From Bacteroidia bacterium (lineage in GTDB: Bacteria > Bacteroidota > Bacteroidia > UBA7662), in assembly GCA_046291695.1 (NCBI GenBank), contig JBKBSO010000010.1:40319-104318 (forward strand): a stretch of DNA of 64,000 nucleotides. The letters run 5' to 3'. A program made the position numbers and the translations under genes. The notes below the pieces were generated by a model, which saw only the letters and a program-made list of their open reading frames with translations, searched no databases and had not been told where the DNA came from. Below are positions 56,413 to 58,199 of this stretch, piece after piece. Numbering within the stretch: the stretch's first letter is position 1; the number at the start of each line of letters is the position of its first letter.

Positions 56413-56486
56413 ATCCCGAAACGGCGAGGTAGCTCAGTTGGTTAGAGCGCAGGATTCATAACCCTGAGGTCACGAGTTCAATTCTC
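56413..56486 (+). tRNA. tRNA with CAU anticodon (elongator Met, or Ile2 if C34 is lysidinylated)
   Basis: The cloverleaf folds by hand. Acceptor GGCGAGG/CCTCGCT has one G.U pair. D-arm is GCTC..GAGC. The anticodon loop is TTCATAA. T-arm is ACGAG-TTCAATT-CTCGT. One A.C mismatch sits at positions 31-39. Confidence 0.8.
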
Positions 56487-56496
56487 GTCCTCGCTA

Positions 56497-56523
56497 CAAA
56501 GAGAAAAGTCGTCAGCAATGACG
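56497..56523 (+). terminator. Rho-independent terminator after the tRNA
   Basis: AGTCGTCA-GCAA-TGACGACT is a perfect 8-bp stem followed by T7. Confidence 0.6.
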
Positions 56524-56705
56524 ACTTTTTTTGTTATACCACTTTCGCTAATCCCCGTAAGCAAAGGAAGTAGAGATGAAGGTCAAAAACTGGGAGCTAG
56601 GTCAATAATTTAGTACTTCTAAAAAGGAAGAGCGCGCAATGGTCTGAGCTTTGCTTAGTAAAACCCCCAAAAGGGTGTCTGAAACGAACTAAACGATAGC
56701 TGTTT

Positions 56706-57785
56706 TTATTTTTTTTCGACGCTCACTCTAAAATATTCACCAACTGCGAATTTGAATTGTTCAATAAAAATTCGCTTAAATGCACTTAGGTTATTTTGCT
56801 CATAGAATATCAGCATTGCCTTTTTATAATCAGCAGCTTCGACGGTTCTGAATGAAATTGGGCAATAATGATGCGTAATTAAAATGCCATTTGCTACAAT
56901 TCTGGCAACCCTTTTGTTTCCATCCATAAAGGCTTGAATATAGCTTAGCAAGACCAGCACCAGCAATGCCTTTTCAAACACATTTTTTTTACTGTTGATT
57001 AGGCTGCAAGCATCCTGTAAGGAATCTCTTATTTGATGCTCATTATCTAATGGTATGTAATCCGTTCCACCGATGCGCACTAATTCCTTACGCAAATTTC
57101 GTTGCACATCAAGTTTCTCAACGAGCATGCTATGTATATCCTCAATGTCTCGAATTTTCAGCGCTTCAAAAAACCCGGGATTTTGCAATAAAAAATCAAT
57201 AGCTTTTTTATGGTTCAAGAGCATGATTGCTTCTTCGACCGTTTTGCCTTTTGCCGTTTGTTGTTCCTTCAAAAGTCTTTCCGTATCTAGCAAACTATAG
57301 GTGTTACCTTCAATTTGAGAAGATTTCCATGTTAAATCGACAGATAATCGCTCCAGCTCCATTTGATATACGGCCGGTGATAGTTTACTAATATTTTCTT
57401 CATATTGTTTTTGCAAACTTTGTAATACTTCCATTTCGGTATCCGTAAATAATCGAACCCCTGCTATTGATTCCATGAAATCAAAATTGAAACGGTTTTT
57501 GATTTTCCTGTTTTCAGAGCTGAAATATTCATCCATATCAATTGGATAGATAAACAGGTATTCAGGCGTTAAGGAGTATTTTAATCCTTTTCCTTTACCA
57601 GAACTCGTAACAAGATTCATTTTTACGAATTCACCACCAAGTCGTCTTTTCACCGTACTGAGCGACATGGAGAAATTTGGGTCCAAGTTCACCAGTCCTG
57701 CATGTATTTCAGGCGCTGAGATTTTGGGATTATCTTTCAAATAGGTCAGTATCATCTTTTCCGCGCTGTTCATCTTGTTAATCAT
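56706..57785 (-). CDS. Fic/DOC-family protein with an N-terminal winged-HTH and a non-canonical Fic motif
   Basis: The core motif reads QAFMDGNKRVAR, where the canonical form is HPFx[DE]GNGRxxR. A wHTH-like N-terminus is present. 359 aa. Confidence 0.6.
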   Translation of the reverse strand: MINKMNSAEKMILTYLKDNPKISAPEIHAGLVNLDPNFSMSLSTVKRRLGGEFVKMNLVTSSGKGKGLKYSLTPEYLFIYPIDMDEYFSSENRKIKNRFNFDFMESIAGVRLFTDTEMEVLQSLQKQYEENISKLSPAVYQMELERLSVDLTWKSSQIEGNTYSLLDTERLLKEQQTAKGKTVEEAIMLLNHKKAIDFLLQNPGFFEALKIRDIEDIHSMLVEKLDVQRNLRKELVRIGGTDYIPLDNEHQIRDSLQDACSLINSKKNVFEKALLVLVLLSYIQAFMDGNKRVARIVANGILITHHYCPISFRTVEAADYKKAMLIFYEQNNLSAFKRIFIEQFKFAVGEYFRVSVEKK

Positions 57786-57786
57786 T

Positions 57787-57908
57787 TATCGGTCAAATTG
57801 ATGTGTTTTTTCGGTCAAATGTAAGCATTTAATGATAAATAACACCAATGCATGACCGTTATTGTTCTTATCGGTCATTTTGGTTTGTTTTTTCGGTCAA
57901 ATTAAACC
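57787..57908 (-). promoter_or_regulatory. Reiterated CGGTCA sites, as two 40-nt direct repeats plus one inverted copy, in the Fic promoter region
   Basis: TATCGGTCAAATTGATGTGTTTTTTCGGTCAAATGTAAGC at 57787..57826 and TATCGGTCATTTTGGTTTGTTTTTTCGGTCAAATTAAACC at 57869..57908, with ATGACCG between them. Confidence 0.4.
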
Positions 57909-58199
57909 TAAATTGACTGCTAAATGGCATTCGGTTGAACGGAATAACGCTAAGTCCTTTTCGTTCACAGTAAATGGTTCGAAGCATTTAAATAACCACC
58001 ATTCAACCACCAGCTCATTCCCTCGTTGTAACTAAGAAATTTGCGGTATCCTCGCTTCAAAAAGGTGGACTCAGACCGTTCTTTTTGCCATCTCAAGCAC
58101 AGATTTACTTGGCCAGTAGGAACTAATGGGCGCTTGTAGCAGGTGAAATGCTTCAAAGCCGAATTTACTTACTAACTTACAAGAAACTAAACTATACCC

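Follow-up and report, generated by a model that had tools for sequence, protein, structure and literature searches.

The tRNA-Met and wHTH-Fic locus

We analyzed 64,000 nucleotides (nt) of DNA from a Bacteroidia bacterium (contig JBKBSO010000010.1 of assembly GCA_046291695.1; "the window" below is this whole stretch, numbered from its first letter), concentrating on an interval in which a tRNA-Met gene is followed by a convergent gene for a protein with an N-terminal winged helix-turn-helix (wHTH) domain and a Fic domain whose catalytic histidine is replaced by glutamine. The gene stands between two near-copies of the tRNA 3′ end and behind a promoter rich in short repeats (Table 1). Judged by sequence comparison, its odd active-site motif defines a large Bacteroidota family that is experimentally uncharacterized in the literature we found. 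Related loci are cited by handle (L001, L002 and so on) where they must be told apart.

Table 1. Features of the tRNA-Met/wHTH-Fic locus in window coordinates
Feature	Position	Strand	Basis
tRNA-Met, anticodon CAT	56423..56497	+	ARAGORN
Proximal core (attL-like), TCCTCGCTACAAAGAG; last 10 tRNA nt and 6 nt downstream	56488..56503	+	Direct-repeat family D5
Bidirectional hairpin terminator, AAAAGTCGTCAGCAATGACGACTTTT(TTT); 11 bp, A- and T-runs	56504..56529	.	Terminator scan
Lineage-specific spacer, terminator to Fic stop codon	56536..56705	.	No homology in L002, L003, L085
wHTH-Fic(Q/K) gene	56706..57785	-	Open reading frame (ORF) list; 359 aa from first ATG
Active-site loop, QAFMDGNKRVAR, Q284-A-F-M-D-G-N-K-R-V-A-R295	56901..56936	-	Read from sequence
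Inhibitory-helix motif, S155-S-Q-I-E159-G-N161, fitting (S/T)xxxE(G/N)	57303..57323	-	Alignment with FICD
N-terminal winged helix-turn-helix, about aa 5-75	57561..57773	-	AlphaFold2 (AF2) topology
Candidate operator array over Fic promoter	57786..57908	.	Repeat and pattern searches
Bacteroidetes-type -7 box, TACATTTG (TAnnTTTG), fused to operator site (TACATTTGACCG)	57816..57823	-	Pattern search
Conserved distal arm, CAACCACCAgCTCATtCCCTcgttgtAActAAGAAAT, and short linker	58004..58046	.	Alignment A3: L002, L003, three L085 copies
Distal core (attR-like), TCCTCGCTTCAAAAAG	58049..58064	+	Direct-repeat search

Rfam model RF00005 places the same tRNA-Met at 56423..56496 (70.2 bits). Its sequence, GGCGAGGTAGCTCAGTTGG...CCTCGCT, has an elongator-type acceptor stem (GGCGAGG/CCTCGCT) and is 84% identical to the tRNA-Met of L002 and L179. 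An initial annotation of this DNA had recognized the tRNA(CAU) and the terminator behind it, both of which are present; the position that it gave for the tRNA, 56413..56486, lies about 10 nt too far to the left. A scan of the window against Rfam returned this tRNA alone; over the terminator, STnc390 scored below its threshold (24.5 vs 50 bits), and Rfam scans of the related loci gave no further RNA families. Predicted RNA folding of the spacer between terminator and Fic stop codon was no better than that of shuffled sequences (z=0.42).

A wHTH domain joined to a Fic fold

The Fic reading frame is intact, with 97-100% identical copies in other samples, and the encoded protein matches Pfam PF02661 (Fic) with E=3.9e-13 (50.5 bits vs a cut-off of 24), as do all 29 aligned family members. 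An AF2 model built on the 29-sequence alignment A1 (mean predicted local distance difference test score, pLDDT, 89) shows a wHTH domain, a helical linker and then a Fic fold, bearing out the wHTH-Fic architecture proposed in the initial annotation. The wHTH comprises three helices and two strands (H7-18, H24-34, H42-55, E59-62, E69-72). Pfam Penicillinase_R matches this domain in 10 of the 29 members (best E=9e-7), while others match HTH_24, FUR or TBPIP, and the family profile shows weak matches to Fur, BlaI-like and TubR wHTH structures. Structure comparisons with Foldseek against the PDB place human FICD first (E=8e-10, root-mean-square deviation 2.2-2.4 Å over ~243 columns), followed by C. 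elegans Fic-1, Bacteroides BT_2513, Shewanella SoFic and others. Sequence searches likewise reach FICD, with E=2.8e-10 by phmmer and E=5.5e-15 with a profile.

The second ATG of the frame (57773) is the start in public gene calls and in homologues, including P0001, a 100% identical protein, and gives a product of 355 aa. The true start is thus probably ATG 57773, the 359-aa reading frame being four codons too long. The first in-frame ATG (57785) overlaps an operator site, TGACCGATAAATG.

The inhibitory-helix segment SSQIEGN aligns residue for residue with FICD TVAIEGN and is invariant, in answer to a check that had been suggested with the initial annotation. Nine residues around it (W153, K154, S155, S156, I158, E159, G160, N161 and T162) are unchanged in the 29 sequences. 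The pattern K[ST][ST]x[IVL]E[GN]N occurs in 102 of 150 cluster representatives, many of the remainder being fragments. Going by this motif, the protein has the same-chain inhibitory helix N-terminal to the core that marks class II Fic proteins.

A glutamine/lysine active site conserved across Bacteroidota

Fic/Doc enzymes are defined by a catalytic histidine. The loop QAFMDGNKRVAR departs from the canonical AMP-transferase motif HxFx(D/E)GNGRxxR at that residue, and both substitutions noted in the initial annotation, glutamine for the catalytic histidine and lysine for the second glycine, can be read in it directly. All 120 closest homologues (55-100% identity) carry the form Q (once R)-x-F-x-D-G-N-K/R-R-x-x-R. 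A profile search of 1.84 billion cluster representatives found 588 clusters (50% identity) at E<=1e-30, and among the best 150 of these, 115 of the 118 representatives that cover the loop keep Q...K...R. The 29-sequence alignment has 90 invariant columns, which take in the inhibitory helix, the flap (G-T-x-Y-x-P-L-D-N-E-x-Q-I), the loop and both arginines. Because the Q/K motif and the inhibitory helix are invariant family-wide, over at least 588 clusters at 50% identity, they are best read as a selected signature and not as decay, which is how the initial annotation had taken the "degenerate" motif. Such invariance indicates purifying selection on the modified active site.

The family spans Bacteroidota (Chitinophagaceae, Sphingobacteriales, Flavobacteriales, Bacteroidales, Cytophagales and Saprospiraceae), with a few metagenome-assembled genomes (MAGs) labelled otherwise, and counts at least 574 matches when one genome per species is considered. 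Nine family loci occur among 2.9 million viral contigs. All-against-all clustering of 791 ORFs from 84 loci revealed no recurrent neighbour gene such as an antitoxin or integrase. By Pfam, the 150 immediate neighbours at 75 loci are mostly housekeeping genes; integrases and defence genes are not enriched, and two resolvases are present. The Fic gene is a stand-alone gene.

Six of these 150 neighbours are GTPases matching Pfam GTP_EFTU (alignment A2), which by length and order resemble Era, Der, MnmE and LepA. Doc targets EF-Tu, making the GTPase neighbours curious; the tRNA-fMet-era-der context of L003 and L005 explains part of them, and non-independent loci may suffice as an explanation.

Among known systems, FICD/HYPE and the other class II Fic proteins give the best match in both sequence and structure. 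The IEGNT segment aligns exactly, and the loop, the flap and the final arginine are all present in the window protein. Unlike FICD, the window protein has glutamine for histidine, lysine for the second glycine and a wHTH in place of the tetratricopeptide repeats or membrane anchor; it is bacterial and predicted to be autoregulated. The motif itself has been described in silico: Khater and Mohanty (2015, PMC4454073) defined a "Doc clade D2" of 45 sequences with the consensus Qx[F|Y]x[D|E][G|V]NKR, in which glutamine stands for the essential histidine, and named lysine in HxFx[D/E]GN[G/K]R as the substitution that characterizes Doc. At the level of the motif, the segment QAFMDGNKR fits the D2 consensus exactly; D2 proteins are mostly single-domain, whereas the present family carries a wHTH and comprises at least 588 clusters. 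Full-text literature searches gave no paper characterizing a Q/K wHTH-Fic protein, the D2 clade being the sole mention.

With Doc of phage P1 (the Phd-Doc system) the window protein shares one feature, the N-K-R segment of the loop. Doc has no final arginine and no flap and needs a separate antitoxin, Phd, whereas the window protein has R295, the flap, an internal inhibitory helix and no partner gene. Membership in Doc was rejected: the TIGR01550 score is 14 vs 38.65 bits, no Doc structure matches at E<=10, and both the histidine and a conserved neighbour gene are missing. Closer in architecture are SoFic (Shewanella, anti-phage defence) and CbFic2 (Coxiella), whose structures are among the Foldseek matches (3eqx, 3zcn, 8cil) and which combine a class II-type Fic fold and a helix-turn-helix (HTH) in one chain. 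In CbFic2, DNA binding controls Fic activity and the HTH is C-terminal (PMC10628234), whereas the window protein has its wHTH at the N-terminal end and a Q/K motif. SoFic and CbFic2 have the canonical histidine motif and are active AMPylases (PMC12249575, PMC10628234). The PADLOC SoFic model matches the window protein over the Fic core only (E=4e-14), which is domain-level homology, and a SoFic equivalog was rejected, NF046030 scoring 15 bits vs a cut-off of 550.

A probable operator array over the Fic promoter

Pattern searches located four direct CGGTCA sites in the Fic promoter (plus strand, at 57790, 57812, 57872 and 57894) and one inverted TGACCG site (57853-57858), as the initial annotation had stated. 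The heptamer TCGGTCA (=TGACCGA) occurs nine times in the 64 kb, four of them inside 111 nt at this promoter. The two direct repeats described earlier are real as well, as 35-nt units (57786-57820 and 57868-57902) with 89% identity and two TCGGTCA sites each; the 40-nt span first assigned to them matches at 33 of 40 positions. The duplication of the 35-nt unit is specific to the lineage of the window.

The sequence TAnnTTTG is the -7 consensus of Bacteroidetes sigma-A promoters. In the window, the -7 box TACATTTG continues directly into TGACCG, and a similar fusion of -7 box and half-site, TAtATTTGA(C/A)CG, is found in L002, L003, L085, L086 and L092. A sigma-70 promoter scan found nothing relevant at the Fic promoter. 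The candidate operator site can be written TGACCGAT or TGACCGATAA, with the variants TGAACGA and TGAGCCG. All close-clade loci (76-100% protein identity) carry TGACCGATAAA 12-16 nt before the ATG and, further upstream, the inverted pair TGACCGATAAAT-n-ATATCGGTCAA, with the -7 box between; this layout of sites is kept in every one of them despite diverged surroundings. In relatives of ~55% identity, the cognate sequence GCTCAAA/TTTGAGC is present in 128 of 138 upstream regions vs 21 of 129 downstream controls. In these distant relatives the copies typically form a direct pair, at about -100 and -70, and an inverted pair, at about -50 and -25, of which the last overlaps TAnnTTTG.

Because the array travels with the gene family-wide and covers the promoter, its most natural role is that of an operator bound by the wHTH of the encoded protein, and autorepression is likely. 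The proposal that the CGGTCA repeats are good candidate operators for the protein's own HTH is thus strengthened by the family-wide array over the -7 box, while the accompanying term "iteron-like" does not suit sites that form an operator array over a Bacteroidetes promoter with the same layout in relatives. Plasmid iterons or a replication origin were considered and rejected: no Rep gene is present, and the sites have mixed orientation and overlap a promoter, and they stand directly upstream of the wHTH gene in every relative.

Copies of the tRNA 3′ end bound the gene

The proximal core TCCTCGCTACAAAGAG and the distal core TCCTCGCTTCAAAAAG match at 14 of 16 positions and lie ~1.56 kb apart. 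Allowing up to two mismatches, the core matches twice only on both strands of the window, where 0.04 matches are expected by chance, and none of 100 shuffled sequences contained two matches. The repeat of the tRNA 3′ end that the initial annotation had flagged thus exceeds chance and is plausible as an att-like scar, with Fic as the sole gene between its copies. The distal core is identical in L178.

Ahead of the distal core lies a conserved arm. Its pattern is CAACCACCAnTTCATACCCTTC-n5-AGTTAGAAAT, followed 10-12 nt on by the copy of the tRNA end, CCyGCTACAAA, and this combination is present in the window, L178, L002, L179 and L003, and three times in L085. Within 1.7 Mb of fetched DNA, the arm motif TCATACCCTTCnnnnnAGTTAGAAAT is limited to close-clade loci. 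The arm-plus-core alignment has no conserved secondary structure (0 predicted pairs), and the arm therefore probably acts as DNA. An integron gene cassette was rejected on the same ground, there being no attC hairpin, and no integrase was seen.

At the proximal end, window positions 56492-56535 (43-45 nt covering the terminator and the tRNA 3′ end) are 88-89% identical to DNA directly 3′ of the Fic stop codon in L002 and L003. The terminator after the window tRNA, GTCGTCAGCAATG(A/G)CGAC(T)7, stands directly past the Fic stop codon in L002, L003 and L179. The terminators of other tRNA-Met genes (L002:17873, L003, L005) are unrelated to it, and L178 has a different one. From these alignments, the terminator at 56504..56529 is of the cassette type and appears to be borne by the cassette.

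Overall, direct repeats of the tRNA 3′ end lie at both borders of the interval, and homology between copies of it ends at the repeats.

Recurrence of the unit in related loci

Homologues of 78-86% identity occupy quite different neighbourhoods, and the locus is not syntenic across relatives, so that it is not a core gene, a finding that would have refuted the reading in the initial annotation. An intact, convergent tRNA-Met gene recurs 3′ of Fic, at +212 nt in the window, +43 in L179, +385 in L003, +880 in L005 and +287 in L181; L178 keeps the same arrangement on a contig that ends inside the tRNA. The outer flanks differ among these loci. The tRNA itself is elongator-type (GGCGrGG...CCyCGCTA) in the window, L178, L179 and L002, and initiator-like (1:72 mismatch, GGG/CCC anticodon stem) in L003, L005 and L181, with era-der adjoining in L003 and L005.

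Pairwise DNA comparisons define the ends of the unit. The window and L003 align from 58046 down to 56727, beginning 3 nt away from the distal core, and align again over 56535-56493, a stretch that includes the terminator and the end of the tRNA. L002 and L179 share 91-92% identity as far as L002:10636, a position within the core, and then diverge: L179 (9125-9289) has an intact tRNA-Met 43 nt past the Fic stop codon, whereas the corresponding tRNA body in L002 (17787-17951) is inverted and 7 kb away. This divergence within the core sequence indicates recombination there. L178 encodes a Fic protein 97% identical to that of the window, retains ~86% DNA identity over the Sua5..Fic interval and keeps the DoxX context and the distal core. 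Its tRNA-proximal segment (9060-9319 vs window 56445-56705) has a different terminator and an unrelated spacer of ~170-180 nt between tRNA and Fic stop codon. To judge from such comparisons, the tRNA-proximal end turns over fast. The tRNA-proximal DNA of L003, L005 and L181 abounds in short tandem units and partial copies of tRNA.

These repeats crowd the gap between Fic and tRNA-Met in L005 (7112-7425, 7444-7559, 7888-7997), L003 (11109-11244) and L181 (1875-2700). Their short tandem units measure 73-115 nt; in L005, the 3′ part of the tRNA and the terminator are duplicated over 116 nt, and L181 has incomplete copies of the 5′ end of tRNA-fMet. Contigs often end close to the gene, no more than some hundreds of bases away, on the tRNA side or just upstream (for example L001, L178, L180, L015, L017, L026, L041, L051 and L073), consistent with repeated or strain-variable flanks.

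Two loci have statistically strong flanking repeats: those of L085 span 93-122 nt (E up to 1e-40), and that of L003 is exact over 18 nt. L085 contains three copies of terminator, core and arm (R1, 4670-4791; R2, 6062-6456; R3, 9070-9462), of which R2 and R3 are 94% identical over 393-397 nt. These repeats set the Fic gene apart from four co-oriented ORFs (173, 133, 188 and 174 aa) and from a further set that includes ORFs of 193 and 215 aa inside the locus. The cassettes of L085 thus lie in tandem and in one orientation, and no recombinase is seen there. The description of the window locus as a decayed remnant does not fit these data, since other genomes, one of them with a tandem array, contain the same unit complete with distal arm and proximal terminator; the unit looks like a discrete cassette.

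Mobility and flanking DNA

Integrase-less, att-flanked islets at tRNA genes are familiar as cis-mobilizable elements (CIMEs), which accrete in tandem beside integrative and conjugative elements (ICEs) in Streptococcus. In Bacteroides, mobilizable elements of the NBU type target tRNA 3′ ends and encode their own integrase. The unit described here resembles CIME-type islets in that the insert stands between direct repeats of the tRNA 3′ end, element sequence with a terminator of its own completes the tRNA, tandem arrays are split by att-like repeats (L085), and no recombinase lies inside the unit. Unlike CIME- and NBU-type elements, it is much smaller (1.4-1.6 kb, one gene), and no integrase or parent element was found. 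Since no recombinase is encoded between the repeats, we infer that the cassette is non-autonomous, and either moved in trans or now fixed. Origin from a phage or mobile element was rejected, given the nine family members in 2.9 million viral contigs and the lack of viral matches to the arm.

On the distal side, the nearest relatives by Sua5 (65-68% identity) have the order S8 peptidase-Sua5-DoxX-DoxX in common with the window; homology is lost at ~58155, beyond which they have A2M/PbpC and no tRNA. In L175 and L176, DNA identity is 76% across Sua5-DoxX-DoxX and breaks ~90 nt outside the distal core; past this point these two carry a 61-aa ORF, alpha-2-macroglobulin and PbpC, where the window has Fic, the tRNA, an outer-membrane protein (OMP)-like gene and def. 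By this comparison, the cassette sits at a rearrangement breakpoint.

The OMP-like gene (55497-56243, minus strand; 248 aa with a signal peptide) lies between def and tRNA-Met and finds only itself among 5.8 billion proteins, its sole record being a "Bacteroidia bacterium" MAG contig. A GC-rich tandem repeat at 52872-53026, with 14-, 24- and 47-nt units based on CGCTCGCTGG(C/G)G..., lies upstream of a ferredoxin-NADP reductase-like gene. Similar short repeats rich in gctcgc/ggctgg adjoin tRNA-Met in L003, L088 and L092, and may form a family like repetitive extragenic palindromic (REP) elements in these genomes.

Interpretation and alternatives

We propose that the structure is the footprint left by site-specific integration or recombination at the tRNA-Met 3′ end. 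Read in the direction of the tRNA, the cassette would consist of a core, CC(T/C)CGCTACAAAGA, that completes the tRNA; the terminator; the Fic gene, convergent with the tRNA; its promoter and operator array; the ~40-nt arm; and a second copy of the core. The Fic gene with its promoter and arm would thus be a discrete cassette of 1.4-1.6 kb, a non-autonomous att-flanked islet that is moved in trans or survives as a fossil. The winged helix would bind the TGACCGAT(A)A sites on the -7 box and short leader and thereby repress its own gene. Phosphate-binding loop, flap and inhibitory glutamate are all retained in the Fic-like domain, whose general-base histidine is gone; the domain probably binds a nucleotide or phospho-ligand, with the lysine favouring a Doc-like orientation, and serves as a sensor or latent effector, and it is most likely no canonical AMP-transferase. 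Our judgment is evenly poised on this composite as a whole, in which window positions 56488..58064 form a 1.58-kb single-gene cassette at the tRNA-Met 3′ end that carries a self-repressing module with a histidine-less sensor or latent-effector Fic domain.

Several observations weigh against it. The window's own core repeat matches at only 14 of 16 positions. About half of the close-clade loci (L086, L088, L089 and L092) have no tRNA-Met, arm or core, and the distant majority of the family is not tRNA-linked: of 163 loci, 13 (two with the same sequence) have a tRNA less than 1 kb away. The cassette context thus belongs to the clade and not to the family. No empty target site, in the form of a Fic-less allele, was found in the four contexts fetched around Sua5 relatives (L174-L177, 65-68% identity), which have neither tRNA nor Fic at the syntenic position. 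No linked integrase was found, Fic being the only ORF between the repeats and integrases not being enriched among the 150 neighbour proteins, which include two resolvases; nor did we find a circular junction or an autonomous partner, and the arm is absent from viral contigs. The start codon is uncertain, given the overlap of the first ATG with an operator site. Moreover, the strong conservation of the loop, flap and inhibitory glutamate fits an active enzyme equally well.

That last point opens the chief alternative, which we consider possible if rather unlikely: the Q/K Fic domain could be an active, toxin-like enzyme, a Doc-like kinase or another phosphotransferase using a different base, held in check by its helix and repressed through its HTH. 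The protein would then be a toxin and antitoxin fused in a single chain, an abortive-infection or addiction module that stabilizes the islet. An otherwise invariant loop (F, D, G, N, K, R, R), flap and inhibitory glutamate would be unusual in a dead enzyme, and the lysine is the signature of the Doc kinase (PMC4454073). There are homology-level matches to the PADLOC SoFic and PDC-S04 Fic models and to a phage family, phrog_11900 (E=3e-28), and SoFic is a defence toxin encoded by a single Fic gene (PMC12249575). Toxicity can persist in a Fic toxin whose core motif is non-canonical (PMC5651007), and Khater and Mohanty argue for residual activity in enzymes with the H-to-Q change (PMC4454073). 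Against this, the histidine is required in every characterized Fic/Doc enzyme cited (PMC4454073, PMC5651007), and the glutamine is fixed across the family; the neighbours are housekeeping genes and not defence islands or mobile elements; viral contigs yielded only the nine matches mentioned; and the SoFic and Doc equivalog scores fall far under their cut-offs (15 vs 550 and 14 vs 38.65 bits).

Two other readings concern how the gene came to lie there. It might be an ordinary chromosomal regulator, sitting passively in a tRNA hot spot and never mobile, with the copies of the tRNA end derived from other elements or local duplication. Most family members do lie away from tRNA genes and among housekeeping genes, four close-clade loci have neither arm nor core, tRNA fragments are common in such DNA given the unrelated short tandem and partial tRNA duplications, and neither an empty site nor an integrase was found. 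We nevertheless regard this as improbable: the same arm-plus-core and terminator-plus-core bounds occur in at least four different neighbourhoods, the unit adjoins two different tRNA-Met genes, the arm-plus-core repeat divides three successive gene sets in L085, and homology between loci stops at the core. The version given in the initial annotation, in which a decayed Fic enzyme is the one gene left of a decayed integrative element and the repeats are iteron-like, is highly improbable. It accounts for the histidine-to-glutamine and glycine-to-lysine changes, for a sole gene between repeats and for the repeats themselves, which are all real. The substitutions, however, are invariant in hundreds of clusters, with clear purifying selection; the reading frame is intact, copies of it are 97-100% identical in other samples, and the ends of the cassette recur reproducibly; neither a replication gene nor an origin is at hand to suit iterons, and the sites overlap the promoter and are conserved family-wide.

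Significance

The proposed cassette and its protein do not upset what is already understood: an in-silico survey of 2015 had described the motif variant, and att-flanked islets without an integrase are known. A bolder form of the proposal, which we hold to be quite improbable, is that the arm-plus-core repeats belong to a previously undescribed, integrase-free cassette system at tRNA-Met 3′ ends in uncultured Bacteroidota, with a re-tooled histidine-less Fic protein. If that were true, single genes or groups of a few genes would be strung together in tandem and in one orientation, L085 being an example, and the self-repressed wHTH-Fic(Q/K) gene would be a recurrent cassette whose new activity might be that of a ligand-gated switch or might serve to keep or move the cassette.

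At least several hundred clusters of Bacteroidota proteins at 50% identity have fixed glutamine for histidine while keeping the other parts of the active site and the inhibitory helix; in the same family the Fic domain is fused to one that is predicted to bind DNA, with an operator array that is likewise conserved. The family offers a testable model for a histidine-less Fic fold, which may be a sensor, a pseudoenzyme or the seat of new chemistry. Moreover, the recurrent tRNA-Met cassette of 1.4-1.6 kb, with its reproducible ends and its setting in poorly studied environmental Bacteroidota, would be a compact case of single accessory genes being shuttled, or fossilized, at tRNA hot spots.

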